A DNA stretch of 64,000 nt from Schmidtea polychroa. Taxonomy: Eukaryota. The notes beneath the pieces are model-generated. The model did not search any database. It worked only from the letters and a program-made list of their open reading frames with translations, and was not told the origin of the DNA. The translations under genes were made by a program, and so were the position numbers. Position 1 is the first letter of the stretch, and each line of letters begins with the position of its first letter. Positions 1 through 53,126 of this stretch are shown in pieces. The stretch covers positions 16,308,001 through 16,372,000 of the forward strand of contig CM097885.1 in assembly GCA_044892525.1 (NCBI GenBank), given 5' to 3'.

Positions 1-1
1 A

Positions 2-7174: not shown

Positions 7175-7198
7175 TTTATAGTGTTAAAATTCTAATTC

Positions 7199-11128: not shown

Positions 11129-11136
11129 TGATGATA

Positions 11137-18560: not shown

Positions 18561-18889
18561 GCAGTAGGCGTAATTGAATGCTTTCAGACGGCCTGTTGAA
18601 TCCTGTGTCCAATTCGGTTCCAGTATTCTAGTAGTGTATCGTCAGTTAGATAAATCCTTCCTGAAAGATAGTTAACGAGTTGATTAAAAATAGTGAACTC
18701 ATGGATTTCAGCCCAGTGCTGTATGAATGATATATCTGAGGATTTAAATTTTTTCACAAGCACAGATCATTACAACCATATATACATATACATCACAGGC
18801 CAAATGGCTTCAATAAATCCACACAAACACATATCATATTATATTATATATTATATATCATACCATTCTCTCCGGCAGCCCCTCATCTG

Positions 18890-27374: not shown

Positions 27375-29069
27375 ATGTTTGCAAGCGTATGGGAATTGAT
27401 GAAGAGGAATAAATTTGAATTTGATAATGAAGTCAGCAGTGAATTGATATGCAGAATTTGCAAGTGTTTAATGATAAAAGCTTGCCATGCTCCTTGCGGT
27501 TGTCGCTTTTGTTCTGATTGCATTGAACATTATTTGGATGGAAAAGATAAATTCTGTCCAGGAGCAGCAAAACATTGTAGAAAGAAAATGATAAATTTTA
27601 TTAAGGATGTTTCGGAAGATCATGCAGCCAATTTAAGGATTTCAGAAGTGATAGTGAGATGCCCAATGCAAAATTGTCAATTCAAAGACGAATTAGAGGT
27701 GATGGAGAGCCACATGAGAACATGCAACAAGCAACCAATAAAATGTCCATTCAATAGAATCGGATGCGAAATGAATGAGGTGGATAAGGATGAAATGAAA
27801 GTCCATCTCATTGAGAACACTGAAGGCCATAGCAAATTATTGATCGATCAGATCAGTAATTTATGCAATGAAATGCAATCAATGAGAGACGAGAATGTGA
27901 CATTGCGTAATGAAATTATCAATATCAATGTAAAATTGTATTTGTAATTAATTTTATTGATATTTGTGATTGTAGGTGAAACTGGGCAATCTTGAAAAGA
28001 AAGAGAAAGAGAACAGAGATGAAATAGAAGAATTGAATGAGGAAATGGTGGCATTGAAGAATGAGAATCGCTCATTGAGAATGGAGATGGAGACAAATAT
28101 TGGATCAATCAATCAAGTTTGATTATTGATTTGATTTATTATTGATTTGTTATTGATGCAAAGCAGGTCAGACAGCAAATTGAGGCGATTGGATCAAAAT
28201 GTCAACAGCAAATTGATGATATGAAAGAGAAAGGCGAGCGGCGGCTGCAACAGGGGAATGAAAAGGTGATTTATTGATTTATTGAAATGTTTGAATTTGA
28301 GGTTCAGTTGCAGCTTGAAATGGCAAAATGCGCCAATGAAATTCGGCAGAATGAAACAAAATATCAACAGCAAATTGATGATATGAAAGAGAAATGCGAG
28401 CAGCGGCTGCAACAGGGGAATGAAAAGGTGATTTATTGATTTATTGAAATGTTTGAATTTGAGATTCAGCTGCAGATTGAAATGGCGAAATGCGCCAATG
28501 AAATTCGGCAGATTGAATCAAAATGTCAACAGCAAATTGATGAGATGAAAGAGAAATGCGAGCAGCGGCTGCAACAGGGGAATGAAAAGGTGATTTATTG
28601 ATTTATTGTAATATTTGAATTTGAGATTCAGTTGCAGATTGAAATGGCGAAATGCGCCAATGAAATACGGCAGATTGAAACAAAATTAGCAAATGAAAAA
28701 TATATAAATTATGGATTTTTTGAATGGCAAATCGATAAATTTTCGCAACAAAAGAGATATGAAAATATTTACAGCGAGGCATTTTATTCCGGGCCAATCG
28801 GTTACAAAATGTGCTTGTGGGTGAGGATTGGGGGTGATTGGGTTGATGTTGGTTTCTGTTTGATGCGTGGGGCAAATGATGAGCAATTGGATTGGCCGTT
28901 CAATCAATCCGTAACAATCGATGTGATCGATCCAGCAAATGGCAGCATTTATATGAGCAAGTCAAGGAAATATTCAGATTGGCCTGATGCAGCCAGATGG
29001 GGGAAACCTTCAGATGATAGAAATATATACCAAATCTCGTATACCAAACTTCTCGTATACCAAATATAA
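27375..29069 (+). CDS. Host TRAF-like gene (RING, TRAF Zn finger, coiled-coil exons, MATH domain truncated at the C-terminus)
   Basis: RING CRICKC...CGCRFCSDC...CP; VRCP...C...H...C finger; MATH FEWQI...YSEAFYSGPIGYKMCL...LMRG..DEQLDWPF; short GT-AG introns. Confidence 0.92.
28190..28690 (+). repeat. Tandem 162-nt exon+intron units in the TRAF coiled coil
   Basis: Donor GT at 28266, 28428 and 28590; 42-nt intron plus 120-nt exon per unit. Confidence 0.9.
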
Positions 29070-29278: not shown

Positions 29279-32200
29279 TTAGTCCGATAAAATGACATCA
29301 TCAATGTCAGTAACATCATCATTATTTATAATTCTTGGACTGTCCTGATCATCGAAAGATGGGCTTTCTCCACCAAAAAGCGGTCCAATTTCTTCATGAG
29401 TAAATACCTGGCCAGCATCAGTTTCCTCAATTCTTGGACTGTCCTGATCATCGAAAGATGGGCTTTCTCCACCAAAAAGCGGTCCAATTTCTTCATGAGT
29501 AAATACCTGGCCAGCATCAGTTTCCTCAAATCCTAAATAATGTCCATATGCCAGACTGGTATTAGGCCCCACCCATAGTCTCTTGTCATCGTTGTTCGAC
29601 AAGGCTATCTTCCTATTCTTGAAAGTAAAGAGCTGATGGTTTCTAGTACCTATTCTCGTTTGTGGCACCGTATATACTACGCTGTTGTTGTAGCAGTCTA
29701 AATAAGACTGGTGCCCTATCTCAGTATTACCAAGCTGAACTCCCTTAGCCCTAAGTGTTGCCTTATCTCCTAACAAACTATAACACTTAGGGCGCAAGAA
29801 CACCCATTCCTTATAACCAAGCCCTTTACTTTCATCCTTAAATTTCCCTATCACAGAATCCAAACTCTTTGAATACAAAGGATGAGCAGGATCATAATTA
29901 CTAGTGTCTAGAAGATTATCACGAATCATTGCCGGCAAAAGAGTGTCAAGCTTACAGTGCTTTATCTCTAAGAAAAAGGAGTCGGTGTCGCCGGCAACGA
30001 TATTTATATCACAGTTAAATTCATTTCTATATTTTGCCAATTCTATATACTGTAACTGGTACATCCTCAGTTTAGACAGGTCTAGCACAGATTGGCCAAT
30101 GAAGCTAGGCCTGTCTAAACATATAGAATCCTTATTTAGATGAGCTGCAATCAGATCATCATCAATTCTGATAGATTTTCTGAATGTAGGTTTTGAGGCA
30201 TATACAATCATCTTTTCAGCTGAATTGCATAACCTCAAATTCATCCGTTTTTTAAGGTTTTCCACGGATTTCCCATACAGACTATTATTAAATAATTTAT
30301 ATAAATCTCTATGCAGCTCGCATGTAGAATTTGAGCGCAAATTAGTATTAGTTGATATGTAATCTTTAAAAATAGGTGCATGCTTAAATTTAATTGCCCT
30401 ATGTACATTTTTAATTAAAGCCCCCAATTCAATATACAACTTGAGAAGTCGCCAATGAAGAACATGGTTCTTCTTCGGCCAATGCGTGAGCATCAGCTTC
30501 TCAACTTTTGAATCTGGCGGGCACATTTTTTCCGGAGCAATCGGAAAATCATTCAAAAAATCATGCAAGCAATCAGGGATATCGATATCAACCTCCATAG
30601 TATAGCCATATGGAAGGTTATCAATATCAGCATTCATACATTCATACAAGACAGAATCAAGGTCATCATACACCCATTCAAAATCACCATACGGAAGATT
30701 TTGGCTTAAGGCCCAACCATACAAGTTGTTTATATCTATATACAAGAGTTCTGTGTCTTCAGAACTTACAACATAATGTTTGTTAACAAATGTTAACCCA
30801 CCCCGTATCCCTCCTTCATAGAAATTAAACATTTCCATGTCCTGTAAAAGTTCAATGGGTTCCTTTAATGTCATAAGCGCTGAGCCCCATGACATACCGG
30901 GAATACCATAAAAATTTAGAGGCTCAAGACCATTGTATGCAATGGCCTTTTCACGGAATTGTGTAAAATAATCTGCGAGGAGAAACACATCAAGTTTAAG
31001 GTATGTTAACATATAGTCTAACATATTGTTGCAATTTTGTTGAGTCCAAATAACTTGGGCTAATTCATATTCATCATTAGACACAGAATCCCAAATAGGA
31101 GGCAATTCAAGAGTTGATTCCAGGACCTCAAGAGATGTAGCGAAGTCATAAGGGAAGATACCTTTTGCTCGAACAATTGCGCCATCAAAAACAGAAGAAG
31201 TTAAAGGCAGATCGGAAAGAGTCTTAACAGCTTTTGCAAGTGATGAATTAACAAACTGCATGCTGTCAATAAAACGAACAGGCAGTTTGTTAATGTACGC
31301 GATGAGAGAGATAAATTTTTCCGTAGTGTTTGGAATAATATTCAATTCCCAAGAAGGAAAATTATTCAAACCATACTTCAAAATATGATGGAGGTCATAC
31401 CCCCTCAAATTGTGAAATACAACAGGTAACTGTCTCTGAATTCTGCGAGACACATTACATTTCCTACAGGCAGCACCAAGATACTTACCTGTGAAGGGAC
31501 AATGGTACCTAACTCTATCTCTAATAAATTTTTTACAAAGATAGCAGGTCCTGGAATTATAAAAGGCACGATCTTCAGCGAAAGACAAGGTTTGCATAGG
31601 CTTATTACCGTTAATTTCGTAATATGGTAGGACAATTGTGACAGCAATTTCCTCCACCTTATGCAAGAAAGACAACACGCAATCCTCACCAACAAACTCA
31701 TAATAAAATCTAGTTTTGTTATAATTGTTAATTAGTAACATGCCTGCTGTTATTGGCATGTGTTTTTGATGGTGGGTGATATCCTCAGGTAAAATCGACT
31801 CAAAATCGGCATATATCACGAATGGCGGGGTTACTGTTTTTGCATAGTTTGAGAATATTAAATTTTTCTCTTTCGGTAATGTATATAAAGTAGAACCTAT
31901 TTGATTCTTACGGCATAGGTCTACATGAATATCATAAGCGCTCCTATGTCTGAAGCCATTAAGGCAATGTGGGCACTATTTGACGCGAATCCAAAGGTGA
32001 CAGGAGCTATTTGGGTGTGAATTCATAAGTTTTTGAAGATCAAAAACTGCGGTGTAATGAAAATTATCACCGTCTTCTAATAATAATAAATATATGGGTT
32101 TACCACCTATAACCTTAGATCGGTGAATAATATCTAACTGGGGATGATGAGGGATATAATCTTCATTGTTGATATAATCTTCATTGTTGATAGGTTTGGC

Positions 32201-33480
32201 TGGTTTATTTCTATATATTAAAACGTTAATGGCTAAGTTCAGTTCACGGTTTTTGCGTTCGAATTTAGGTATGTTACTTAATCTCATCGGGCAATCACTA
32301 ATGGGGTCAAAATTAATTTCATCCAAATAATTTTGGTAAGCACTAACTCGATGCATATTTCTGCGTATAACATCACGCTTTAAGAGGGCTAGAACACTAT
32401 ATATAAAACACATATCATCATCTGTGTTCTGGATATTGACTATTGCGTGTTTAGACTTTAACGCTGTCGGGGTGGGAATATAACTATGTCCAGCTAACCT
32501 ATTCATAATCTTATACTTATTTATTATGAAGTCAATTTCTTTTATTTTAACAACCCGCCATCCGCTACCTAAATATGTGAATTTTTCTATCTTATTATTT
32601 AATTTAGTGACGCCATTGATTAAAAAATTTTCTGAAAAAACTTCGGCGTTATTGGAGAAAAAATTATCTCGGATTTCGCCATCTTTCTCAAATTGTATGA
32701 GAACCGTGAACTGAATTTTAACGGGCCCCATACCGTTCATTTCTGATACTAGTTTTTGAATAATTTTTGGTGTTATTGCTATCTGTACTAAGGCGTCTTT
32801 CTCCACGTCAAACCTTAGATTTTTTCTAGCCCCCTTAAAATCTATTTCTATTTCTGGCTCGTCGTCTATATCGACTGAACCGCCTATTTGATTATTTAGT
32901 ATATTATTTAGGATATTATTTAGGTTATTATCTATTTCATCACCACCATAATTAACTTTAACAATTTTAGATGGAACACAAGACCCCGGACTAACAGCAG
33001 GCCGTTTTTTATTTTTAATTAGATTATTATTCACATTATTATTTACATTATTATTTACATTTTGTGCTGTGCTATTCACATTTTTATATACAGTTTTATT
33101 TACAGTTTTGATATGTTCTGTATTATTTACATTTTGTGCTGTGCTATTCACATTTTTATTTTTATAAACAGTTTTATTTACAGTTTTGATATGTTTTGTA
33201 TTATTTACATTTTGTGCGTGCTATTCACATTTTTATTTTTATAAACAGTTTTATTTACAGTTTTGATATGTTCAGAATTATTTAACTTATTAAAAAGTTT
33301 CTTTTTATTTAAAGTAAACTGATTTAGATGTTTACTATGTATATTATAAAAATCCTTATATTTTATAGGTTGGGAAGTCTGGCATAGTGGACATAAATAA
33401 TATTTGAGTCCATAGAATTTATGCCCATAGTATTTTTTCATGTTTTTGTGACATACTTTAGTATGCCCAGTCGAAGACAT
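29279..33480 (-). pseudogene. pPolB of element B with one frameshift (~33218) and one in-frame TAG (31976-31978)
   Basis: Three ORF-track pieces join. A 1-nt deletion in one copy of an N-terminal repeat (AGCACGCAC vs AGCACAGCAC) links the Zn-finger ORF; IRVK*CPHCL reads on into YADFE, YIDINNLYG, KLFNNSLYGK and GDTDS. Confidence 0.93.
29330..29529. repeat. Perfect 99-nt tandem duplication in the pPolB tail
   Basis: EETDAGQVFTHEEIGPLFGGESPSFDDQDSPRI twice, identical at the nucleotide level. Confidence 0.95.
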
Positions 33481-33692
33481 GCAATACCGAGGATATAATC
33501 GGCCTATTAATAAATTTATTTAATAATTATCTAAATATTGTTGTAATATAGAATGTTTAATATCTTTATTAACAATTGTTAGTAGTTATTCAGTTTTTTA
33601 TTAGACAATAATTATAAAACTGAATAACTATTAACAATTATTAATAAAGGAAATATTATTAGCAGTTAGATCAAAGACATGGAAATTTAAAG

Positions 33693-33774
<82 letters not shown>

Positions 33775-33778
33775 TATT

Positions 33779-33835
<57 letters not shown>

Positions 33836-33888
33836 AGAGAGATGTAGTTGCATGCTGACTGCAAACTACTGGTAGAAATTATGGGTCA

Positions 33889-34038
<150 letters not shown>

Positions 34039-34392
34039 TCTAAACTTAAATTATAACTTTCTCAAGAATAGTTCAAAATTTTCTTCTTTTTAAATTTTCA
34101 TCATCATTTCATATAAATTTTCATCATCTGTTCATATAAATTTTCTTCATATAATTTTTCAAATAAAATTGTTCAGGATTTTTCAAATAAATTTTCATCA
34201 TCTGTTCATATAAATTTTCTTCATCTGTTCATATAAATTATCTTCATATAAATTTTCTTCATATAAATTTAAATCGTCAATTACAAATTTACAGCATTTT
34301 TTAAAATAATTTAAAGAAAGTTATAATTTAAGTTTATAAATAATTTATAAATAATTATGATTAATAAAAAATATTATTCATGAAAAAAAAAA

Positions 34393-35096
34393 CTAACATT
34401 TAGACTCTGAATCAGAGTCTGTTTCGTCCTCAGTGAGGATATTTCCAAAGATTTTATGGGCATCTCCAATAAAAGTTGAGGCATAATCTGCTTCCTCCCC
34501 AATATCTGTGGGGGCATCAATTAACATTGTTTCAATAGGTGCAGCATAAATTGGAGCATCATCCTCAGAGAGGGCATACCGAATAGGGGCATCATTCAAA
34601 ACATTTGAAGCTTCTAAATCATTTTTAAAAATTACATATAAAAATAATAAAAACTTACGAGTATTTTCTATCATCGCATGTTCGATGAAAAACTCATTGT
34701 CGATGTGGTTAGGAATCATTTGACTATGTCCTAAAAAAGGTTTTTAATTTAATACAATAATAATAATAAATTACTTGATAAATCATCATCATCCTCACTA
34801 ATGACTATTGTATCGTCATTGTCGCTAATAATTACTATTGTATCGTCATTGTCGCTAATAATTATAGGATCTTCATCATCGCTCACCATTATAACGTCTA
34901 AATAATAATAATAATATTAATAAATAAAAATAAAATTACCATATGTACAATTTAAATTAAATCCATCTTCATTTTCAGTAACTTCGTACCACAAATCATC
35001 TATAAAATAAATATATAAAAATAAATAAAATAATAATATTTTACCATTGCTGCCAGCCATCATACATCTCAGAATATTATTTTCTTGTCCTTCCAT
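34393..35096 (-). CDS. Spliced acidic protein with four tandem SUMO-interacting-motif-like repeats (at least 5 exons)
   Basis: ATG 35096; phase-1 GT-AG introns 35000-35044, 34898-34939, 34731-34774 and 34614-34658 give one frame containing VIMVSDDED, IIISDNDD, IVIISDNDD and IVISEDDDD. Confidence 0.8.
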
Positions 35097-35525
35097 TTTG
35101 TAAAAATTTTAAATTAATTGTGACGAATTTGGAAATTGCAAATGTTTATAAAGAGATTTAAATTTTCCTGTCCCAGCCAATAAGATTTCGGTATACACAC
35201 ATAGAAACTTAAATATTTTACTCTGTTAGCCAATCACATCGCATCTACATGTGCCTTGTTAATCACACTGTTTCCATGTGACTGTCTTTATTAGTCAGTT
35301 CTTTGTTAACATGCACTGTGCATGCACGGAGCATGTGATGGCTTTATGATAAGTTAATTAAAAATAATTAATAAGTTAATAATAACAATAAAATTAAAGT
35401 CTTTCTTATTAAATAATAATAAAAGTCATTCTTATTAAATAATAATAAAAGTCTTTCTTATTAAATAATAATAATAAAAGTCTTTCTTATTAAATAACAA
35501 CAACAAAGCATACACTAAACATTTA

Positions 35526-35940
35526 TTAAACATGAAACTTTTTGTACAACAACCACGCCAAACAGTGTTGACCACATGTTTGGGTCAAGGGATTTTGAAA
35601 CATAGTTTTATTATACACAATAGGTTTCCCCATTGTTTGTAGTTTTGATATCAACAAAGCCGGGTAATAAAAACCCATAGGATCGAACACGAATATATTA
35701 CCAGGTTTCATATATATAGCTATCCAATGTTCTCCACCAAGATGAGACGATTGAGTATTGACGATTATTGCTTGATTATTGCTCAAATATGGAATTTTAT
35801 CAAGAGGAAAAACTCCAACAAATTCATTTCCCAATATCTGTTTTCCAATTCTCAGTACCTGAACAGAACTACTTAAATAAATCCAGAGTATAAAAAAAAA
35901 CAACTTACTCCATGACAACTTTTTGTGTTTCAATATACAT
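35526..35940 (-). CDS. Adenain-like protease of element B, two exons
   Basis: GEHWIA, FVFDPMG, QNPLTQTCGQHC. ATG at 35940 abuts the capsid stop; the GTAAGT...TAG intron 35869-35908 joins MD|SVQVLR. Confidence 0.88.
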
Positions 35941-37154
35941 TTATACCAACACAGCTCTATTTGCAGTAATTTGAACTTCATTTTCAAATACTCCATATAT
36001 TATAACATGTACTGGTTCAGTAATAGCTTTTGCAAACTTTATATCCAGTCGTAAATTTCCATTTTGAGGTAATTGACTTTGATTTAAATCAAAATCAGGG
36101 GCTAAAACAAATGTAAAAAATGGGTATTTGCTTTTAAAATCCTCTAGAGTTATTCCGCAATTCAAATTTTTATCTAAATAACCCAGATTTCTAACAATAC
36201 TCTGCATATATGTCGCACAGTCATTCTCGAAATCTTGAATATATGTTTCTCTATAATCAGTATTTTTCGACAAAGTCAATGATGTAACACCAAAGTTTTT
36301 GAAAATTGAGCTGGACGCAGTATATGATCCATTATATTGTGCTTCACTTTGAAATGTTATCAGAATAAAATTAGGCATTCTTCTGTCACCAAATATTTGT
36401 TCTTTATAGAATGATGAAGCACCTTTAGCAATAGCAAATTGTACAATTTCCTTTGTTTTTAATGGATAAATTGCATGTTTTGAATTAAGACCCAATTGAT
36501 GACCTGCTAATACTGAGGGGTCTACTCGAACTCTTCTGACCAATAATTTTGCATCAACTAATTGACATATTGGTGTAGTAGTTGCACTAGTAAGAGATAA
36601 TGCAGAATCAGACCTTTTCAGTCTAATATGTACATTAACTCCCGGTAGTAAATATTTCGGTTGATCCATAAAATCAAGTTGTAATGATGAGCACATGGTG
36701 AAAACCTTTGAGCCTTTTACTACTTTTTTCTTTCATCATCACTGCCATAGCCCATAGGAGTAAGACATGTATTTTTAGTATCGGAATTGTAATTTAAAAT
36801 AGTTTCTATTAATGCCTTGTGAATGAATGTATTATTTCCACCCTCAATCTTGATATTATTAAATCCCAACACTGCATCTTTAAAAAGAGTATGAAACAGG
36901 AAATTGTTCGGTATTACATCTGCATTGGCATCCAAAACTTTTCTATCTTTATCTACAACCTTAATCTGAACAGTCAATAAAGTATCGTTCAAATCTAAAT
37001 ATTCGGTTTGTGAACCATTAATATAAAACTCGATATCATTTCTACTATCGGTAATTGAATTCATAGGAAAAACTTCGTCAAATGCCCCAAATTCTATTAC
37101 AGCCTGGGGCGACGGTCTATCAAATATACATAATTCAGATTTACCACAAATCAT
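35941..37154 (-). pseudogene. Major capsid protein (double jelly roll) with a 1-nt frameshift at run 36724-36729
   Basis: CGKSELCIFDRP, IEFYI...YLDLNDTLL, LQLDFMDQPKYLLPGV, GNLRLDIKFAKA. One extra A gives RKKVVKGSKVFTMC and joins the two ORFs. Confidence 0.9.
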
Positions 37155-37513
37155 TTTGCAAATATAGTTCCATGTCCTTTCATTCTTTTGTTTATACGTG
37201 ATATTCCATGTCTTTTACGTTTTGGAGCTGGAGCTGGAGCTGGAGGTTTTTGAAACATACCTGCAACCCCTGGTAAAACTTTCCCTAATTCAGCTAAAGT
37301 ATTTGTTTTTAGAGATGGTAATATTTTCTGTTCATTCATAATAACATCTTTTGCAGTCTTCATACCAAAACTACCAATACGTTTAAGAATAGGCAGGGCA
37401 AATCTACCAATTGTTCTCAACCATCCTGATCCGTACTGTTTACCAATAAATTATGGTAATTCACCGCCAGATTGGCTACCACTATACATACTAATAATAT
37501 CAGAATTAGCCAT
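37151..37513 (-). pseudogene. Conserved Polinton core protein with amphipathic helix; in-frame TAA at 37451-37453
   Basis: MANSDIISMYSGSQSGGELP*FIGKQYGSGWLRTIGRFALPILK; QxGG and QxGxG motifs; basic tail. Confidence 0.75.
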
Positions 37514-38549
37514 TTATTTTACGAAAATGTAATGTCAAATGAGTTTTTGAATCTTTTGGAAAGTTTATAAGTTTTCCACTATCATCACGAATATTTATTT
37601 CTATATTGTTTATACATGAACTTGCTATTGGTAAATACATGGGATTATCGATATTTATATTGACAACTTCATCATGTTCATATTTTCCAATCCATACCGA
37701 TTTCAAAAGAGGAACACTGGAATCACCAACAATTATGGGTTCGATAATGTTAGTATATATGAACATTTGTTGATGATGTTCTAGTATTCTTGGTTTGCGT
37801 ATACCAGTCGATTTTTCTCGATATTTTTGCCTATCTAATCCAAGTGAATTTGCCAAATTTTTATCAAATGTAACTTCGCAAATATCCTCATTCAAACTGA
37901 AGGTAAACATCAAATCTTTCACAATTTCCAAATTTTTAAATATGTGTGAACAATTGAACTTTAAATATTTAAGTAAATCATCAAGTTTATCAAAATATAA
38001 TTCATCAGCAAAGGTAAATGATTCTTCAACTTCATCATTATACGACACAGATATTTTGATTTCTTCTTTCATTACACTGTTTGCTTCAAATAGATTAAAA
38101 CGTAATAAATACTCGGTCTCCGTAACAATATTTTTCAACTTATTGCAACCCATTCGTTTGGCATCTTCAATAGTTTCGAATGTTATTGTAAACGGTTTAA
38201 AATCACAACTGATATTTAATCCATCCTTGTAAAACATATAGCAATGCGAATCTAATATTTGATTCGGAATATGATATGTTTTATCATAATTACTAATAAC
38301 AAAGATACCGCTACATGTTTTCACAATATTCCTTCTGAAATCAATCTTACAATGACTATAAAATGGGAATGTGTTGTACACAAATGTAAAATCTTGCAGT
38401 GCAACTTCCCAGTCACCATTTAAAGAAATCGGATTCTGGAGATTGACCATAAATTTACTGGCTTGATTGTCTGGATGAATTAATGGGCAAGTATTGCTCG
38501 GTAAAATAGTATAAAAATTCACTTTACTAGGTCTTTTGCTGATATCCAT
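37506..38549 (-). CDS. Minor capsid protein (penton) of element B
   Basis: FYTILPSN...NQASKFMVNL...GDWEVAL; MFIYTNIIEPIIVGD..VPLL; IEINIRDDSGKLINF...LTLHFR. Confidence 0.9.
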   Translation of the reverse strand: MDISKRPSKVNFYTILPSNTCPLIHPDNQASKFMVNLQNPISLNGDWEVALQDFTFVYNTFPFYSHCKIDFRRNIVKTCSGIFVISNYDKTYHIPNQILDSHCYMFYKDGLNISCDFKPFTITFETIEDAKRMGCNKLKNIVTETEYLLRFNLFEANSVMKEEIKISVSYNDEVEESFTFADELYFDKLDDLLKYLKFNCSHIFKNLEIVKDLMFTFSLNEDICEVTFDKNLANSLGLDRQKYREKSTGIRKPRILEHHQQMFIYTNIIEPIIVGDSSVPLLKSVWIGKYEHDEVVNINIDNPMYLPIASSCINNIEINIRDDSGKLINFPKDSKTHLTLHFRKING

Positions 38550-39151
38550 GACGGGTTTTGATAACCATGCCATTTGACATAGTATTGTTTATCCTTACCG
38601 ACCTTTTTCGTTTTCAATATCTTTTGAATTCTAAATACTTTTGGGGGAGGAATGACTTGTAATTCCTGCTCATAAAATTTCCCTTGTACAATATTATTAT
38701 CATTATCTTTGATGACATACATTACAGGATTCTGTTTAGTATTTATTTTTGAAATTACAAAGACTTCATCACTCCAATTTGTATCAAAATTTTTAATAAA
38801 TGGTGATGCACTAATTTTACTAATTCTAACATGGTCACCGACTTTATATTTAGGTTTTGCAATTTTTACAGATTTCTTAGAAGTCAATGATGTTTTTGAT
38901 GTAATATCAACAGGTCTCAATCCATTCAGTCCTCGATGTGACGAATGATTATAACTTGTTATTATTTTCGGTAAAGCATTTACCCATTTTTTATTACCTT
39001 GATGCACGAACAATTTCTTTAATCTATCTCTCAATGTTCGATTAAATCTTTCAACATGGGCAGCTTTGTATTGAGAATGTACCGAGTAGTGATTTATTTT
39101 CAGTTTATCGAGGATTTGCTTAACTTTGCTATTGTAGAATTCTTTACTTAA

Positions 39152-39246
<95 letters not shown>

Positions 39247-39634
39247 CTAAATCTGTTTGCAAGTTATTAGGATGTCCATCTTTAAATAAAATATTAATTG
39301 CCTTGGACATTTCTTCTGCAGATTTTGCCTTGACTGGTATTGCTCGTGCAAACCTGCTGTATACATTAATACATGTTAAAATATATTTATTTCCATTGTT
39401 AATTTTCGAATAAGGTATCATCTCCATCAAATCCATTTGCCATAAATCGTCAATACCAAATGTTTTATATGCTCTTGTTGGAAATCTTTTCCGCATTGGT
39501 TTGTTCAAACTGTACGCAAGCTGATCTGATAACCACTTCTGGGTTTCTTTTTTCGAATTCTGAACTCTTTTCTTTAATTTTGCCACTCCACCGAAACCGG
39601 TTTCGTCTTCTGGGTTCGTCCAAATCTTCTCCAT
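38519..39634 (-). CDS. rve integrase with C-terminal chromodomain, interrupted by an (ATT)n intron-like insert
   Basis: WQMDL, LQTDLG[insert]KEF, HVERFNRTLR; chromodomain FRIQKILKTK...YYVKWHGY...SWI; likely start MEKIW at 39634. Confidence 0.92.
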
Positions 39635-39692
39635 TACAACAAGAAGATTTAAAATTAAATTTAATGTCGGGCAATGAAGGATTAGCACCCAT
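39465..39692 (-). CDS. Small overprinted ORF with an N-myristoylation motif
   Basis: MGANPS fits MGxxxS; also contains SSCC. The ATG lies 3 nt after the upstream stop and the ORF overlaps the integrase 5' end in another frame. Confidence 0.45.
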   Translation of the reverse strand: MGANPSLPDIKFNFKSSCCNGEDLDEPRRRNRFRWSGKIKEKSSEFEKRNPEVVIRSACVQFEQTNAEKISNKSI

Positions 39693-39695
39693 TGT

Positions 39696-40223
39696 TTATG
39701 ACTGTGTAACTCCACCTAATAATGATAATGCCAGAGGTATCAAGGCACCAATAAATCCACCTTGTTGTTTATATATAATTTTCCTCATTTGCTTACGATT
39801 TTTATTATTTACTAAGGATAACAATGGTTTCCTATGTTTGCTCAATAAATGCTTTTTTCATTTACTGATTTTAATTTTGCCTTTGACTACTTTAAGTATA
39901 ATATTGAGTAAATCATCGACAACGAAATTTGGGAATGATTGCAATATATTCATTCTTTTCATACTCGGGGCCTTTAACAATGCATTAAAAAATGGAAAAC
40001 TGCGATGATTTTTAACTACTTTTTTACTGGTTTTACTGGTTTTACGGGTTTTACGTTTAGGTTTAGGATTTTTCGAAATAAGATTCATTGCAGAGAAATT
40101 TTCAGTTACAAGTTTTTTAGATGGTGTATAACTAGTTGTTGGTGGAACTTTTGGAACTTTAATACTCTTTCTAATACTTTTTCTTAATTTCCTAATATTT
40201 TTCACCCTTGCTTTTAGAAACAT
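39696..40223 (-). pseudogene. Basic Polinton core protein ending in QQGG plus hydrophobic tail; in-frame TGA at 39858-39860
   Basis: Reading through the stop gives KKHLLSKHRKPLLSLVKNKNRKQMRKIIYKQQGGFIGALIPLALSLLGGVTQS*. Confidence 0.75.
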
Positions 40224-40241
40224 TATTATTCATAGAGGTTT

Positions 40242-40868
40242 TCAACTTTGTTTATAAACCATGGCACCTTTTGGGTTGAAAATATCGGTTTTTACTCGTA
40301 AATCATCGGGACATTGTTGCGTGAAATCAAGAAATATATATCCATGAGGTATTTTTGTAGCATCTTGAAATGCACTGATAAGAAAATTACGATTGTTAGG
40401 GTATGCTTGACGTGCAAGAAAATCAATCACTGTTGCATCTCTAGGATTCTTGAAAATAACTAAATATTGTACATTTAAATTACGTGTTCGATGTGCCCCG
40501 CCTTGATGAAATAGATTTTGTGTTATGAAAATAACTGTTACACCGACATGTCTGCTGATCTTTGTAAATAAATTATTAAAATCTTTTTCTTTATTAGCTT
40601 CTTGATACAGATCATCGATAATAATGACATCACCTTTCTTTAATCGGCTGGACCAGTTTTTATCGAATCCCTTTACTATTTTCATGTTTTTTAATTTACA
40701 GAAACTTGATTGAGTTAATCCATGTTCTTCATCAGCACCCCTATGCCAATAAATCCTGTTGAATTTTTATTTGAATAAATTTGATTTTAGTAATTTACAA
40801 ACAAATAATGTTTTTCCACTACCACTCGGACCAACGATTTGGTATACTGCATCATTTCTTAATTCCAT
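40242..40868 (-). pseudogene. A32-like packaging ATPase of element B; in-frame TAA at 40767-40769
   Basis: GPSGSGKT, IIIDDL, SRH, ITQN and FKNPRD lie in one frame across the stop. Confidence 0.92.
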
Positions 40869-40971
40869 TTCAAAAATTTTATAAATATATGTGTATTTGT
40901 TTATATTCAATGATTTAATGAACTCGTGCTCAATTTGTATATAAAGACTAATTTTCATAAATGATTTAATA

Positions 40972-41409
40972 ATGTTAGCAAATATAAATTATCGAGGAAA
41001 TTTTGATGTATCGAATATGAGGTTCCCACCAGGGAAACCCCAGCAAATTATCGATAGAAGCGGGAAATATCCGATAATATTTTTCAAGACTGGTAAATGT
41101 AGAATCATGGGATGTAAGAAACCTTTGGATATTAATAAATTACAATATCGAATAAATAATATTATAATCCAATCAATTACCGTTACTATGGATATGGGAC
41201 ATAGTATCAATTTATATAACATGTCGAAAAAATGTGATTGTATGTTTGAACCGGAATTGTTTCCGGCACTAAGACTATTAAAATATAACCCTATATGTGT
41301 CAACGTGTTTGCTAGTGGAAAGGTTGTCATGCTGGGGTTGAGAAATTTGGAGTATAGAGAATTTGTTGACAATGTTCGAAATGAGATAATTTCATTGGTC
41401 GATTTCTAA
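40972..41409 (+). CDS. Divergent TATA-binding protein (TBP)-like protein
   Basis: Two TBP repeats: IIFFKTGKCRIMGCK (cf. LIFSSGKMVCTGAK) and IQSITVTMD...FEPELFPAL...VNVFASGKVVMLG (cf. YEPELFPGL...LIFVSGKVVLTG). Confidence 0.88.
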   Translation: MLANINYRGNFDVSNMRFPPGKPQQIIDRSGKYPIIFFKTGKCRIMGCKKPLDINKLQYRINNIIIQSITVTMDMGHSINLYNMSKKCDCMFEPELFPALRLLKYNPICVNVFASGKVVMLGLRNLEYREFVDNVRNEIISLVDF

Positions 41410-41483
41410 TTGGTTAATTTCTAATTGGTTATTGATTGATTTAAACAAACGGTTTTTTGTTTAGGATTCATTTATTCAACACT

Positions 41484-41850
41484 ATGTACAAATTACCAAG
41501 CTCTGCAAACCTCATGAAAGATATTGACGATTATGGTAAATTTAAAATTTTTATTTTGACATTTTTTAATATTTATTATTTTAGAAAAATATTTAGAAGT
41601 TATGCTCAATAGGATAAAATATTATTATTCTCAAATTGCGGAAATAATCAAGGACAGAGAACCAGAAATCGTTCCAGATTTGATTTTTTATTCAACCCAA
41701 ATTAGAATTATGGAGGTATTCCATCAATTCTTATGGGATATTAAGATCGACAGAACCATGAAGCAAATGGAGCCGGAGTACCAGTGCATCATCGGATGTT
41801 CATGTTGTGCCGATCGATATCGGCGATATGTCGAATGGGAGTTAGTATAA
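41484..41850 (+). CDS. Two-exon hypothetical protein with a CxxxCxCC motif
   Basis: ATG 41484; GT-AG intron 41536-41584 splices in frame to ORF 41602-41850. Confidence 0.7.
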
Positions 41851-42169
41851 ACTCTGAGAAGGTTTCACTACTCCCGGATTGTTGATTTGGGTTATGAATA
41901 AATGTATTTCGTGTTTGAATTGTGTTTTTTTTTATATTTAAAATAATAGTAATAATATAAATAGTAATAATAATAATAATAGTAATAATAATAATAATAG
42001 TAATAATAATAATAATAGTAATAATAATAATAATAGTAATAATAATAGAAATAGTAATAATAATAATAGTAATAATAATAGTAATAATAATAGAAATAGT
42101 AATAATAATAATAGTAATAATAATAAAACATTAATAATAAAACATTAATAGAACATAAATGCAGCATTA

Positions 42170-42246
42170 ATGCAAATGACATGCAAATTTAAACAAAGAC
42201 ATGCTATAATCTGATTGGTTGATAGGCATGAGTCAAAGGTATAAAA
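42170..42246 (+). promoter_or_regulatory. Pol II-type promoter: two octamers, CCAAT box, AP-1 site, TATA box
   Basis: ATGCAAAT at 42170 and 42181, ATTGG at 42214, TGAGTCA at 42229, TATAAAA at 42240, ATG at 42281. Confidence 0.65.
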
Positions 42247-42280
42247 ACCCTGTAACATTTAAATTTATTCATTATTCACT

Positions 42281-42691
42281 ATGACCAAGAAAATTTCATG
42301 CACCGAAAAACCTAAAGAAATGGTACAACCAGTTCAAATGTTCCACAACTACAAAATGTATTTTTTGAAAGAAGAAATCAATATGAAATTAGTTGCACCA
42401 GTCAAGCTGATTCCAACTAAATTTGAATTCTTATCCGGCACGCTTTCAATGATTGATGTCAAAACTATTGATGATGTTTTTAAACGGATAGATTCGAATC
42501 TATCGTGTAATCAACATGCGTGGTTCAACAATAGATATGCAAGATTTTATGATGCTTTTGATGAAATCAGTTTCAAAGAAAATGGAAATTGGTATATAAC
42601 AATTGCAATCCAGGGATATAAAGTTGATAATAATGATGTATATTCTCCTATTTGGAAAATTATGTCTGCTAGACTTTCACAAATATTTTAA
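42281..42691 (+). CDS. Hypothetical beta-rich protein, possibly OB-fold/SSB-like
   Basis: Intact 136-aa ORF with a good promoter and a downstream AATAAA; the fold guess is weak. Confidence 0.6.
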   Translation: MTKKISCTEKPKEMVQPVQMFHNYKMYFLKEEINMKLVAPVKLIPTKFEFLSGTLSMIDVKTIDDVFKRIDSNLSCNQHAWFNNRYARFYDAFDEISFKENGNWYITIAIQGYKVDNNDVYSPIWKIMSARLSQIF

Positions 42692-42817
42692 TGTTATATT
42701 TAATAAATGTATTAGTCAGATTTGTTTTTCTCTTTATTAATTGCAACATAAATGCGAATGACATGCAAATTTAACAAAGAAAATCTATAAACAAACTTAT
42801 AATATAGTTTTAAAGTG

Positions 42818-43179
42818 ATGAAAATGACTGCAGAAAAAGGTTAACATGATTAATTAATTACCGAATTATTTATTATTTAGAATTTTTAATCAACTTTTTG
42901 TTGGAAAAGTTAGCAGAAATATCTGGTGTGAAAATTGAGGACATATTATCTATTACAAATGCCTTAAATATCGGCTGGATAGTTGAGAGTCAAGATACAG
43001 GATTTGATGATGAGGAAGAAACTCAAGAAACCGATACTCAAGAAATTGATGAGGAAATCTATGAACCTATAGAGGAACCTATAGAGGAACCTAAAGATAA
43101 TATTACGAATGATTGTATTGATCATGTCGTTGAAAATATAATGAAATGTGGAGATGACGACTGCGAATGTGTTAATTAA
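42818..43179 (+). CDS. Two-exon acidic protein with a Cys-rich tail
   Basis: ATG 42818; GT-AG intron 42840-42880 in frame with ORF 42898-43179; AATAAA at the stop. Confidence 0.65.
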
Positions 43180-43248
43180 TAAATCTTAGTGTTTGTAAAT
43201 TTATTTAAAATTTTATTTAAAAATCAAACAAAATAACTATATTAATTT

Positions 43249-43764
43249 TTATTTAAAAAATCTGGATAAAACATACAAAATAGCAACACCAGTTGCAAGT
43301 TTTATATAGTTTTTAAATTTTCTTTTCTGATCATCTATTTCCTTCGCATTTCTGGCGAGTTGATTTAGTACTCCCCATCCGCCATTGGCTTCAATCCATG
43401 GTTGAAACTTTGACTTGATTATCTAGAAAATAAATATTAATAAAATATAGATTATAAAAGTATTACTTCTTGAGACCACTGATAATAGTGCTCGGAGTCC
43501 CATAGACTTTTTTCAATTATTATCTTCATATAAGCGAACCCTACTAGTATTCGGGTCCACTTCATCTCCTCGTCGCATAGGCAGTTAAAAATCCTATTAA
43601 AATAGAATTTTTTTGGTTTCGAGACAATAGGAATTGATCACATCCTCAAAATCAATGTGATTACTTTCTATAATCTTTTCAGTCCGATCGACCAGAAAAC
43701 TGAGGCTTTCCATAATATTCCTGTTGACGAGTTCTCTTAAAAGATTTTCCATAAAATGAGACAT
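43249..43764 (-). pseudogene. Bcl-2 family protein (two exons; 1-nt frameshift at run 43608-43614)
   Basis: BH1-like LCDEEMKWTRILVGFAY, BH2 FQPWIEANGGW, tail anchor YIKLATGVAILYVLSRFFK*; phase-0 intron 43423-43466. Absent from the ORF track. Confidence 0.85.
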
Positions 43765-43869
43765 TTTTACAATAATTTAAAATATGATGTTTTATTTATA
43801 CTAATACCGTATGATTTTGATTGGTTGATAAACTATAAATGTAAAAGAAAGGTTTTGATTTGATACACC

Positions 43870-44370
43870 ATGAAAACTATATTCATATTGCTAATTATTA
43901 TAACGAGTGTGTGCTCACACAATACAACAATAACAGTGGAGTCCTTTAATAAATCAATATGTGTTTGTCCGAATACAGCCAAGTTGATGAATATTTTATA
44001 TATTCTCGACAAACCAAAATGGTCAAAGCATCCAGGAAAAAGAATATCTCAAAGATTGGAGAATTTAGAAAACAGTTATGAACTATCATTTGAATATATA
44101 CAAAATATAAAAATTAAATTGATTGATCATATTGAGGTTTTCAATAACTCTATTGTTGAAAATAAAAAGAATATGAAAATTATTGATAAGAAGCATGATT
44201 ATTTATTAAAAAAGATTGAATTATTATTAAGAGAAATTCAAACAATCAAAGGATCAATTGAATATCTGAAAATCAATTCAACGTTATCAATTTCAAACAA
44301 TATTGCTGCGAATAGTAGTACATCAATATTTAGTTTACCTTTGTTAATTTTACATTATTTTATTGTTTAA
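43870..44370 (+). CDS. Putative secreted or GPI-anchored coiled-coil glycoprotein
   Basis: Signal-like MKTIFILLIIITSVCS, several NxS/T sites, heptad region, Ser/Asn-rich spacer and a terminal hydrophobic tail. Confidence 0.6.
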   Translation: MKTIFILLIIITSVCSHNTTITVESFNKSICVCPNTAKLMNILYILDKPKWSKHPGKRISQRLENLENSYELSFEYIQNIKIKLIDHIEVFNNSIVENKKNMKIIDKKHDYLLKKIELLLREIQTIKGSIEYLKINSTLSISNNIAANSSTSIFSLPLLILHYFIV

Positions 44371-44507
44371 ATAAATGTATGTTTTGTTGATTTGTGAGTT
44401 GTTGAGCGTGACCAGTACCCTTGTGAGCATTACCCATAGAGGGAGAAAATATTTTGTCGGATAAACTCGGGGCAGTACCCTTGCGTACAATACCCAACAA
44501 TAATAAT

Positions 44508-44651
<144 letters not shown>

Positions 44652-44744
44652 TTAAGTCTTACCTGATTGGGTGAATGATAAATCACCCGCAAATTTCTTC
44701 ATAAAATTTGCTATAAATTTGCTATAAATTAGTGTCTGACTAAA

Positions 44745-45334
44745 AAATTAATAACTTTTATACCACTAGTGATAAAAATTATTTCTATGGCTCAAAAGAT
44801 TTGTCTTCGTCTGGTCTTCAAAATGAACTATAAATTGTTAAAATATTTTGAGATTTAGACTAAGTTTTTGGCTCACGAAAAGTAGGACTCCGCTAGCACA
44901 GTTAATAATATTTTTGAAAAATAATAATAATTTACCTTAAAATGACTAAAATGACTCTGACCAAAACCTTAATAACTTTTTTATTATTAGTGATAAAAAT
45001 TATTTCTATGGCTCAAAGGATAGATCTCCGTCTGGTCTTCAAAATGAACTATGAAATTTTAAAAGATTTTAAGTTTCAGACTAAGTTTTGGGGTCACGAA
45101 AAGTAGGACTCCGCTAGCACAGTTAATAATATTTTTGAAAAATAATAATAATTTTTGATGAGTCATCGGATGAGTCATTGTCTTTGTTCTAGACGAGTGA
45201 TGAGTCATCGGATGACTCATTGTCTTTGTTCTAAAGTTGACCTTGAAAAAAAAATTTTTAAAAATTTTTTCCGGCCGGGGGGGGGGGTACTGTGCTAGCG
45301 GAGTCCTGTTTTAGCGGTGCCCAAACCACCTACT
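44745..45334. repeat. Right terminal region of Polinton B: 221-nt-period duplication, AP-1 repeats and tip
   Basis: Two copies containing AGTAGGACTCCGCTAGCACAGT (44881, 45102), an inverted copy at 45289-45307, and terminal CCTACT. Confidence 0.85.
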
Positions 45335-48841: not shown

Positions 48842-51640
48842 ATGGCGACCACGATGGCCAATTTTATCAAAGCACCGGAAAATTTTGATATAGGAACCAA
48901 TTTTGAAGATTTCATCAAGGAAACCGAAAGAGTAAGATTATCGAAATAATGTCGATAGCTGAGGACTTCGAAGGTAGATTTGTCAAAGCTTTTTTATCAA
49001 CAGATGCAATTAAGAAATGTGACTCAACAGAAGAGAAACAAAATTATATGGATAGACTGAGAGAAGCCTTCAAAAAAACCAATGAATCTGATGGAAGACT
49101 TAAATGAAGCGCTAGATTATAGACACGGAGATGATTCCGTTGATGATTTCTGTGAAAAAATTGAAAAATTATCAAAACTAACTCTGAAACATGAGTTAAC
49201 TAAAGAAGAACTTCAAAAAGTCTTATATTCAATGCAGTAAGAGACTAAGATTTGAAAAAGATTTGAGATGAAATGAGTATAAACCAGTGAACAAAATGAA
49301 AAAGAGAATATAAAACACGAAAAAGTAATTAAAGAATGAAATCGAAACAGTGACTCGATAGCAGTTGTGGCAACGGAAACGAGATACGCGGATATGGTAA
49401 AAAGAGTTGTAAATATTCCACGAAGACCAATATTACACAGATATAACGATATGCCGAGCCAAGACAGAATCGTGAATATTCGAACAAAAAATCGAATTTT
49501 TATAATCAAGAATTTCAAAGAAACAATAGGCCAAAATTCAGATGCTGTGCATGTCATGAAGAAGGCCATAGAAGAGCAGAATGTCCAAATGTTAAATGTT
49601 ATCTTTTTCACAGAACAGGACATCTCAAACACCTGTGCTTCCAATTAAGAAACAATTTCAGAGATGTAAGAGAAAATGAACAAGAAAACATACGAGGAAA
49701 ATTCCAAAGAATTGGCAGAAATTTCAGAAACCGACAATATCAGAAACCAGTTGCGGCAATAGAAGAAGAATAACATGAAAATCAATACCCAAATGAGATG
49801 CGGTGATCGGAGCACTGCAGTAAGTATGAGTTATATGTTGAATGGGGAATTGTACGATGACTGTTTGTATGATAATTGTTTGCATGTATTAAATAATGAG
49901 AAATATAAATATATAAGTAATGATGATAATTGTAAATGCATCTCGATGCAGATATTTATAGTAATTGGTGTAATAATGCATCAAGATTAGATGATTTTGG
50001 AAATGTTGTAGAGCATGTAATATTAATGATATAATTAAATATAATAAATTAAATGGTAGACCAAGTGTCACATTATTGATCAATGAGAACGAAGTATGCT
50101 GTTTATTAGATACAGGAGCAAAGATCAGTGGGATTGATGAAAGCGTATTAGAAAAGATAGGAAAGTTTAATTTAGAAAAAATGTTATGTTAAATTGAGAT
50201 GTGCAAATGAGTCACCGGTATCTATAGTAGGAAAGGTAAATATTGCAGTTCAAATAGCGGGAACAAAAGAGACGAGAATAATTTAATTTATTGTGGCCAA
50301 AGAGATTTCACCAAAGGTAATTGGAGGAAGAGACTTCTTGAGAAAATTTGACATAATGTTAAAGATGAAGGATAGTTTATTAAATGACTGTTTAAATTCA
50401 AGATAACGAATAATAATTTTATTTTCATCCACAGAGCCACGGGGATCAGTTTTGAATAATAACAGTTTGTTCATTTCAATACCATAAGATAATGCCATCA
50501 TTGAACAACCTAATGGTCGCATCTCAGTTGATTGGGTAGAAAGCTGCTTAATATCCGCAATAGAACGACATATTATGTCACAAGGCATTTCATATCCATG
50601 TTTATATCTAAATCGAACTGCTTCCATTTGTGCACGACATACTTGAGATCGATAATCAGGGATCATACCAGTCATGACACCTCCAGGACTTTCAGTAATA
50701 TTAAACAACCTTGTAGCTGAACTCTTCTCAATCATTTTATCTGGAACCTTTCTTTGGGTAGCTACTACATCACAATTATTGCATCGAATACCAACGGAAA
50801 TCCATCCACCAAATAAATTTAATATTAGTTGGCCAAAAACACCATTAACGTTATCAGGATCTCTTGGGATCATAAAAAAGGAACCATCAGTTTCGTTAGT
50901 AGTATTTCCAATTTCCATTGAGTTATCAGATTCATAAATTTCTTCATTAAAAGCAGCCATATTTTATCATCATTCGACTCCAGCAAAAAACCAAAAACAA
51001 CTCATAATTCTATTCAAATCGATAACAACTCTAAAATTACAAAATCACAAAAAATCTAATCAAACATTGTCCTACCTCTTGCTCGCGTCTGTGTGCGCAC
51101 ACAATTCCAACCAACAAAGAAAAAACCCACACAGAAAAAAGAAAATAGCGCACACAGACGCGACACACCAACAACCCAACCCAAAAAATGACATTGCTCG
51201 CGTCGTGTGCGCACACAAACCCATCACACAATACAACGCGCACACAGACGCGCATTGAGCTCATAATTTACCAATGACGATGTTACTATTGCTGAAATAA
51301 AAATTGCAAAAGAATTGAGTGAATCTAACCAATGTAAAGATTGTAATGTCAGAGAGCTATGCAGAAAATTTGAGGCAATTTTTAGGAAACACAAATGGGA
51401 TGTGGGTAAGACAAATTTAATAACGCATGAAATTTTAACATCAGGAAAACCTATTGTGATAAATCCAAGACTACAGCCAGCCAATTTAATTGGAAAGATT
51501 GATGAAAATATAAAAGAGATTAAAAAATATGGAATCATTAAAGAGTGTAAATCGCCATGGAACACTGCTTTAGTGTGTGTAAAGAAAAAAGATAAAAATG
51601 ATGTACGAATTTGTCTGGATTTTATAGCACTAAACAATGA
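48842..51640 (+). mobile_element. Degenerate Ty3/Gypsy gag-pro-RT(5') remnant with internal insertions
   Basis: Zn knuckles CHEEGHRRAEC and CYLFHRTGHLKHLC (~49545-49640), protease LLDTGA (~50103), RT start GIIKECKSPWNTALVCVKKKD...RICLDF. Confidence 0.88.
50436..50810 (-). pseudogene. PSMA6: Captured proteasome subunit alpha type-6 fragment
   Basis: TQRKVPDKMI...LFNITE...VMTGMIPDYRSQV.RA..EA..FRYKHGYEMP.D..C..IADI.Q..TQ..EMRPLGC...KTDP.G; both protein ends are missing. Confidence 0.9.
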
Positions 51641-51781
51641 CCAATATTAATATTTTCATTCCATAATTCATAACATAAATCGATTGTTTCTTACAACGCG
51701 ACATTAGTAAATAAACTACATACATCAAACGAAACCATATACTCATTAACATTATTTTTATTAAACAATGTTAATGAGTAT

Positions 51782-52170
51782 ATGGTTTCGTTTGGTGTAT
51801 GTAGTTTATTTACAAATGTTCCATTGAAAAAACGATCGATTTATGTTGTGAATTATGGAATGAAAATATTAATGCGCATAATAAGTGCGATGGAAGTGCA
51901 TTTAAGGAAGCTTTTAGAGTTTGCAACTTCCGAAGTTAATTTTCTTTTTAATAATGAATGGTATGAACAAATTGATGGAGTGGCTATGGGTTCACCCTTA
52001 GCACTAACAATGACGTCAATATTTTTGGCATGTTTAGAAAAGAAAATTGCTTCTTTTCAATATGAAAAACTAATTGTGTATAAAAGGTATGTTGATGATA
52101 TTTTTTTGATATTTAAAAATAAGGAACATGTGAAACCATTTTTGCATTATATGAATAGATTGCATAAGAA
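51782..52170 (+). mobile_element. Penelope-like element RT fragment
   Basis: VSF.V.SLFTNVP, FLFNNEWYEQIDGVAMGSPL, YKRYVDDIF. Confidence 0.88.
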
Positions 52171-53126
52171 AATTTTTATTATCTTTAATTTAGGCAAGCA
52201 GCACCTAAAATAAAATAATAAAAACATTAACCTTAAGTTAATAAAATTTTAAAATAGTTACATAGAAAGGTATTGTGTTTAAATAGCTCATTTTTATGAT
52301 TTAGTCTTGAAGTAAATTCGGATTTTTAATTATTTTATAATTTATCAAAGTTTTATTTTAGTTTCCTAGATTTTTATTTTAGTTCTGAGAGATAAAACTA
52401 CCATCTGTCAATTTTAGTTATAATTTAAAGAATTTTTGTATTTTTTAAAAATGAAACATGTAAAAGTCACTGGCTATTCTGAAATAGTTATAAATTATTT
52501 CGGTCAAATAACTTTAACTGAATATGATTTCAGGTGGGATGTATTTATATTTTCAATTTAATTGTTGGAACCGGGGCGCTAACATTACCGAAAGCCTTTC
52601 AAGATGCAGGTTGGGTGTTGAGTGGAATCGTTTTATGTATCTTATGTTTAATAAGGTAACATTCACCAAACTATTTTTGATAAAGCATTATGTTCACGAA
52701 TTTAAGTTATATTACCGCAACTTATGTAATTGAAGCGATGAGCATTTCAAATGGACTGCAAAAACTGTCCAAATTAAAATACGTAATTTATTTAATTAAT
52801 TAATTTATTATCTTTATTGAAAGAAAATTTTTTATTTATAAATTATATGGAAAATTTTATACAATTTTAATTCTCAAATTGTTTCTTCTTATTATTATTA
52901 ATTAATTGTTAATTAAATTAATTAATTTATTAAAATCTGAAATTTTTTTATTTTATAATTTCATGTTTTGGATTTATAAATAATTATTTTTTGAATTTTA
53001 TTGTATCCAAAATTTGTATTTGTTATTAATTTATCCATTTGATTGGTCATGGGTGTATAAATCATTTTAAATAAATATATTTATTTTTAATATTATAAAT
53101 TTTTTCAATTTTCAATTGACATTTTA

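Follow-up and report, generated by a model that had tools for sequence, protein, structure and literature searches.

The 64,000-nucleotide (nt) stretch of the Schmidtea polychroa genome analysed here (the window; GenBank assembly GCA_044892525.1, contig CM097885.1, positions 16,308,001 to 16,372,000) contains element B, which is very likely a decayed Polinton/Maverick copy of the adintovirus type from a lineage that took up true spliceosomal introns and transmits them while copying itself. The solid new part of this finding is a conserved intron that isolates the start codon of the adenain-like protease gene. Judged from comparison of DNA sequences, this intron is old and inherited and very probably needed for protease expression, because it is kept in six of six related loci, its phase is constant, and in three of the four lineages the unspliced sequence lacks an ATG before the catalytic His. 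Other introns of the group are younger, or occur in accessory genes.

The protease intron

By alignment of the integrase, 37 metagenome loci were fetched, six of which reach the protease gene. These six represent four lineages (L007, L008/L035, L009, and L014/L016) with 48-58% identity to exon 2 of the window. A comparison of intron presence across related elements, proposed as a check in the first-pass annotation of the window, gave a uniform result for the protease: all six loci show an ATG, two bases, GTAAGT, an AT-rich body, and AG, with the intron in phase 2. Intron lengths are 39, 39, 40, and 47 nt in the lineages and 40 nt in the window, so that all three classes modulo three occur while phase 2 is kept. 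The columns of ATG, donor, and acceptor are invariant in the alignment, whereas the intron interiors are no more similar than shuffled sequences in nine of ten pairs; such conserved ends with a drifting interior were found for the protease intron only. When both strands of 138,657 bases are read, the motif ATGnnGTAAGT is encountered eight times, and six of these lie at the protease site. Removal of the intron restores a frame collinear with uninterrupted homologues, and sister copies of the element in three sequencing runs carry a 3-nt deletion within it. The encoded protein exceeds the PF00770 cut-off of 21.3 bits (Table 1), and its profile retrieves adenovirus proteases.

Without splicing, the frame starting at the protease ATG stops after two codons in all seven sequences (window and six loci). 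An upstream ATG in the frame of exon 2 is absent from all six loci, and the first Met codon of exon 2 lies behind the catalytic His (codon 46) in L007, L008, and L014, at codons 63, 78, and 55, respectively. As predicted by the first-pass annotation, such genes are hidden from callers of open reading frames (ORFs): the starts given for this protease in database entries fall within the capsid tail, within the intron, or on internal Met codons. An ATAAA(C/T) box precedes the protease ATG by 31-37 nt in all seven sequences. The box lies within the capsid gene of the relatives, whereas that of the window coincides with the stop codon of the capsid gene.

In a tree of the integrases, lineages with the protease intron stand on both sides of the midpoint, which fits an intron older than the divergence of the sampled group. 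The tree of the proteases (quick version) is largely unresolved, with 5 of 54 branches starred, and does not demonstrate that the intron arose only once. The intron is not universal, since distant ORF-called proteases mostly begin unbroken with Met-x-Ser/Thr in the same register (five close and 47 of 146 new representatives inspected), as does, on DNA, the protease of element A, a second Polinton in the window.

Introns in the integrase and TBP-like genes

We read the insert in the integrase gene, on sequence grounds, as a recently gained intron that is damaged in this copy. The insert, which the first-pass annotation had added to its list of introns, is present and contains an ATT run, but excision at either of the two GT-AG pairs identified would destroy the frame or the conserved motif. 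With about 100 nt it keeps the frame open and adds 33 hydrophobic residues in comparison with the L007 integrase; as long as it is retained in the sequence, the rve match (E value 2.2e-5) stays under the cut-off. Among 920 homologues at E<=1e-20, the 120 listed all show PF00665, and all 120 are unbroken at the insert site, including proteins 70-76% identical to that of the window. This protein set is biased to unbroken genes; the loci, found via motifs downstream of the site, are unbiased, and all 30 that span the site are likewise unbroken. In the tree, the window integrase nests in a set of 16 rows (96% support), the other 15 of which are uninterrupted. A sister contig from run X14 has a canonical acceptor at the end of the insert.

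A parallel young gain is found in the TBP-like gene of L004 (243-726), which is split by a 40-nt GT-AG intron at 376-415. This intron is missing from the window, L006, L007, and L020. Both young introns follow an exon AG. The lineage-specific gain postulated earlier can thus be kept in the form of gain within the Polinton lineage, with the amendment that at least two ages are involved, an old and shared one (protease) and a recent one (integrase), and that accessory-gene introns were perhaps captured.

The GT-AG segments of 40-49 nt and the accessory genes

All eight frame-consistent GT-AG introns of 40-49 nt listed by the first-pass annotation are present; the frame continues across each, and the exons lack internal stops. 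Each of the eight has a GT donor, an AG acceptor, and a T-rich body, with a GC content of 4-23% compared to 32-36% in the exons. The statement that introns occur even in core genes applies to two of them, the protease and integrase genes, but not to the four others: the polymerase, ATPase, and capsid genes show no intron, and an intron-sized break is also absent from the ATPase (19 loci), the major capsid protein (13 loci), and the polymerase (2 loci). In a blind scan for motif and frame, 6 of 16 candidates in element B passed, namely five of the claimed introns and one weak extra, compared to 1 of 22 in element A, which lies within an intact ORF. The motif filter is a blunt test, because it missed introns 3 and 4 of the poly-SIM gene. 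The weak extra candidate (40937-40978) overlaps the start of the TBP-like gene, the frame of which does not need it.

The accessory-gene introns are read from composition and frame; they are probably real introns, either gained in place or captured. Of 2,098 exon chains that are possible in the acidic poly-SIM gene, 44 are open throughout, and the 30 of these that were listed all include intron 3 together with the intron 2 acceptor. Intron 4 is spanned unspliced by a sister contig. Removal of the intron from the Bcl-2-like gene places the Bcl-2 motif in frame. The signal behind the Bcl-2 label is weak: all 46 rows matched by exon 2 are chains of the Bcl-2 family, with a best E value of 0.068, Pfam recognized none of the pieces, and the middle piece had no PDB match. 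Gene 41484 had neither a homologue nor an Atlas match. A further orphan gene (42281-42691) has a counterpart at L007:1253-1822 with 30% identity over 113 residues; no family was found for it, the Atlas giving low scores only. Behind the TBP-like gene of L004, two accessory genes (L004:806-1560) have 40-nt candidate introns near their starts (830-869 and 1303-1342) and no similarity to the accessory genes of the window.

The introns of element B match those of the neighbouring TRAF-like host gene in size (42-50 nt), as had been noted before, but this match depends on one gene, in which three introns are repeat copies. The TRAF-like introns have 46, 47, or 50 nt, plus three of 42 or 48 nt that derive from one 162-nt repeat; the gene has been expanded by three tandem units of this repeat (28177-28686), each comprising one exon plus one intron. 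Near 29030, close to element B, the MATH domain of the gene appears to be truncated. A proteasome gene at 50283-50963 was considered as a host intron reference and rejected, as it reads without introns; this alpha-6-like frame with a diverged end is probably a decayed retrocopy.

Sequencing runs

The family is widespread in the organism, the stretch being found, whole or in part, in 20 of 23 listed sequencing runs (seven studies). Contigs from four runs (three guessed to be RNA, one DNA) were aligned over 34380-39130. In the listed part of the alignment, 15 of 143 joints and 12 of 25 gap rows, a skip of 37-49 nt was not seen, which speaks neither for nor against splicing; contigs of a guessed-RNA run contain intron sequence, so they may derive from DNA. 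The poly-SIM gene had a far lower summed depth than the core genes, a difference not readable as copy number. For splicing of the element B introns, we infer it from the DNA sequence.

Gene content and decay of element B

Element B shows the gene set of Polinton/Maverick (adintovirus) elements: a protein-primed polymerase, an integrase, an A32/FtsK-like ATPase, an adenain-like protease, and a double jelly-roll capsid protein (Table 1). The last assignment was made via the intact L007 homologue, 54% identical, whose predicted model (mean pLDDT 62) matched the capsids of PBCV-1, iridovirus, and Sputnik in Foldseek with E values of 1.8e-13 to 5e-13; according to this model, the protein is a double jelly-roll major capsid protein. 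The putative single jelly-roll minor capsid protein gave no Pfam match, and L007 has two minor-capsid-like genes in tandem. In the ATPase, Pox_A32 was detected weakly on the C-terminal piece (E value 0.008) and a P-loop in the N-terminal piece, with 76% identity to L007. The ATPase gene stands head to head with the TBP-like gene. Inspection by eye pointed to a secreted or membrane-like protein with hydrophobic ends and a coiled-coil middle encoded inside the right end (43864-44370), and to two genes of L007 (222-719 and 9591-10055), one ubiquitin-conjugating-enzyme-like and one exonuclease-like, the latter at the poly-SIM position. Near 45291 lies what we take to be a Polinton-like end motif; no partner motif was seen within the window.

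The copy is decayed, with stops or frame breaks in the genes of the polymerase, the capsid, the ATPase, a basic protein, and the Bcl-2-like protein, and it contains several AAT runs. In the polymerase gene, a stop lies near 31976 and a frame break near 33210; its product is 53% identical to the intact L007 polymerase. Among viral contigs, no relatives were found for protease or capsid and one weak 39-residue match for the integrase; a DNA pattern of donor plus protease matched 10 viral stretches, none related to element B. Prokaryote genomes yielded two weak matches only, phage records none.

Table 1. Features of element B and of the neighbouring reference gene; positions refer to the window
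Feature	Position	Strand	Remarks
Polinton/Maverick element B, decayed copy	29279..45291		about 16 kb; right end near 45291, matching left end not found
TRAF-like gene	27375..29069	+	host intron reference, outside element B
Protein-primed DNA polymerase B	29279..33481	-	PF03175, E 1.6e-27; no intron seen
Acidic accessory gene poly-SIM	34393..35096	-	putative label from the first-pass annotation; five exons, 175 codons
poly-SIM intron 1	35000..35044	-	45 nt, phase 1, 4% GC; multiple of three, stop-free
poly-SIM intron 2	34898..34939	-	42 nt, phase 1, 5% GC; frame needs it
poly-SIM intron 3	34731..34774	-	44 nt, phase 1, 11% GC; frame needs it
poly-SIM intron 4	34614..34658	-	45 nt, phase 1, donor GTAAGT; multiple of three, stop-free
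TATA-like box, ATAAA(C/T)	35939..35944	-	31 nt before protease ATG; putative promoter
Protease exon 1, coding part	35909..35913	-	ATG and two bases
Protease intron	35869..35908	-	40 nt, phase 2; conserved in 6/6 related loci
Protease exon 2	35526..35868	-	adenain-like, His and Cys motifs; PF00770, 28.4 bits
Major capsid protein gene	35941..37166	-	no intron; frame break near 36725; 54% identity to L007 protein
Probable minor capsid gene	37506..38572	-	uninterrupted; assigned by position and homology to L007 genes
Retroviral-type integrase with chromodomain	38519..39634	-	rve domain
Integrase insert	about 39246-39147	-	ATT run behind GT; read as young intron, acceptor not intact here
A32-like packaging ATPase	40242..40869	-	no intron; in-frame stop near 40768
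TBP-like gene	40972..41409	+	PF00352, E 6.4e-15; uninterrupted in window
Orphan gene 41484	41484..41850	+	intron 41536-41584, 49 nt, phase 1
Acidic orphan gene 42818	42818..43179	+	intron 42840-42880, 41 nt, phase 1
Bcl-2-like gene	43249..43764	-	intron 43466-43423, 44 nt, phase 0; frame break near 43610

Other elements in the window

Element A (1-11625) is a distant second Polinton with uninterrupted genes for polymerase (1315 codons), ATPase, and protease; the end of the polymerase gene is partially duplicated at 6620-7183. That this element has no introns, as claimed before, is correct for its visible genes; the edge of the window truncates the element, however, and it is distant from element B, its protease being at most 30% identical to any row compared. 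As a control for intron polarity it was rejected, since it is too distant. Elements bearing a reverse transcriptase are located at 12678-18641 (stop near 14997) and 51674-52213.

Alternative explanations

Several observations weigh against a lineage with functional introns. In the window, the frame of exon 2 is open upstream, with ATGs 38 and 43 codons up in the capsid tail, and in its family translation of unspliced RNA from such an upstream in-frame ATG could yield a protease with an N-terminal extension. For L009, nearly the whole protease could be made from unspliced RNA by a start at the Met in codon 7 of exon 2. The protease P0004, which falls in the window's protease group (98% support), and its cluster member P0274 start unbroken with Met-x-Ser; they are either intron-free copies (losses) or RNA-derived contigs. 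Introns 1 and 4 of the poly-SIM gene are not needed for the frame, because they are multiples of three without a stop, and are recognized by composition and donor quality. The motif filter missed two of the eight introns and passed two doubtful extras, and no homologues were found that support the exon joins of the poly-SIM, 41484, and 42818 genes.

For the accessory genes only, and compatible with spliceosomal introns in the lineage as such, host genes could have been captured as DNA together with their introns, in which case six of the eight introns would not have been gained by the element. We regard this as a serious possibility, if somewhat short of an even chance. Intron-bearing cargo occurs in nematode Mavericks according to the available text of 10.1101/2022.07.12.499685, the Bcl-2-like gene is of a cellular type, and L004 has other intron-bearing genes at the same place. 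Yet the accessory genes are short orphans with element-like GC content for which no host counterpart was found, and capture cannot explain the introns of the protease, the integrase, and the L004 TBP-like gene.

If no splicing took place at all, ATG-NAG-TAA would represent a minimal upstream ORF or a stop-start signal, and the protease would be made by re-initiation or from a non-AUG or upstream ATG start. The two-codon frame in all seven sequences, the position of the protease gene tight behind the capsid gene, and the upstream ATGs in the window's family would agree with this. It leaves unexplained the full GTAAGT consensus and the invariant AG-T, which stands at a spacing varying modulo three and always restores the frame; nor does it account for the missing upstream ATG in the six loci. 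We consider it improbable.

Even less probable is an insertion of introners (intron-making transposons), for which dinoflagellate Polinton-like elements set a precedent in the available part of PMC11957031. The 11 introns compared do not form a family of similar sequences bounded by terminal or target repeats: of their 55 pairs, one beat all 200 shuffles and two more reached p 0.04, in low-complexity DNA, and junction repeats had 0-3 nt. The lack of a shared sequence family speaks against introners.

Decay in the form of AT-rich or microsatellite insertions with chance GT and AG ends into a dead copy, suggested by the broken polymerase, capsid, ATPase, and Bcl-2-like genes, the AAT runs, and the expanded ATT run in the integrase insert, is the least credible explanation: it is already refuted for the protease, the intron of which is common to distant intact relatives, sister copies carry the protease intron (with the 3-nt deletion inside), the integrase insert, and poly-SIM intron 4, and it explains only the length and the damaged end of the integrase insert.

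Proposed mechanism and significance

According to the reading as spliceosomal introns taken up by the lineage, two steps can be seen in the DNA: in all relatives with readable DNA, the second codon of the protease is divided by an old intron, and younger introns occur in single lineages, in the integrase of the window's family and in the TBP-like gene of L004. Host RNA polymerase II would start just behind the TATA-like box, resulting in a first exon of only a few bases, and the host major spliceosome would remove the intron of about 40 nt, thereby linking the start codon with the body of the enzyme (Met-X-Ser/Thr). Adenain-type proteases mature the particle. Since unspliced RNA gives only a two-codon peptide from the protease ATG, particle maturation would depend on splicing; the first-pass annotation had suspected such a dependence, and the comparison of the six loci supports it. 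It presupposes particles, which are putative for these elements. Because the element replicates as DNA without a reverse-transcription step, introns that are well spliced by the host could accumulate as in a ratchet. Intron positions near start codons may in addition aid export and protect against silencing of intronless transcripts; in human cells, introns counter the silencing of intronless invaders, as stated in the available text of PMC8770142.

A more far-reaching idea, which we regard as rather unlikely, is that the protease intron is a selected control point instead of tolerated baggage, which, by keeping the start codon in a tiny first exon, makes maturation conditional on host splicing. 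If true, this control point could time maturation and confine the group to hosts that splice introns of about 40 nt. The group would then be a lineage of DNA viruses in which introns of the host type continue to be gained, and could serve as a small model for how introns originate. Polinton surveys, as described in the available part of PMC8097293, look for ORFs that are intact and intronless, and count interruptions as decay. Elements whose protease intron is obligatory would score there as broken or mis-started, as database entries already are. The conserved intron argues for nuclear transcription and host splicing while the elements spread. Sister elements differing in single introns (integrase, TBP-like gene) offer datable gains with empty sites, rare material on the origin of spliceosomal introns.

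Comparison with known systems

In adenoviruses, a related virus group, the polymerase and terminal protein are made from spliced transcripts with a tiny first coding exon, so that the host spliceosome attaches the start codon to the enzyme body. Adenovirus introns are long and belong to complex transcription units, and the protease frame itself is not known to be split. With animal Polintons and adintoviruses, as far as described in the available text of PMC8097293 and PMC8502044, element B shares the protein-primed PolB, rve integrase, A32-like ATPase, adenain-like protease, and double jelly-roll capsid protein; Bcl-2 homologues are also noted among adintovirus accessory genes. The premise that Polinton core genes are generally intronless agrees with the available portions of PMC8097293 for vertebrate and 10.1101/2022.07.12.499685 for nematode elements. 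The former reports that the genes of vertebrate Mavericks, where these are intact, contain no introns, with Kapitonov and Jurka 2006 cited to the same effect; the elements described here differ from them by a protease intron conserved across the element group and by a young integrase intron. A spliceosomal intron in a Polinton core gene is not mentioned in the available parts of PMC8502044, PMC10748475, PMC11296320, PMC12220804, PMC11244446, 10.1101/2024.03.25.586562, and 10.64898/2026.10.13.758929. Nor was a conserved Polinton protease intron found in the literature searched, which covered few subscription papers or Repbase reports (the annotated maps in the supplements of PMC8502044 could bear on it).

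Nematode Mavericks (10.1101/2022.07.12.499685, available text) resemble element B in that intron-bearing accessory genes travel inside the element. They differ in that their core genes, including the protease, are called intronless and the cargo forms one GC-rich block, whereas element B has introns in core genes as well, and they flank its module left and right. Dinoflagellate Polinton-like elements (PMC11957031, available part) likewise carry intron-type inserts. Those introners are copies of host transposons and mostly younger than the integration; the introns of element B, in contrast, share no sequence, and one of them is conserved across diverged elements.

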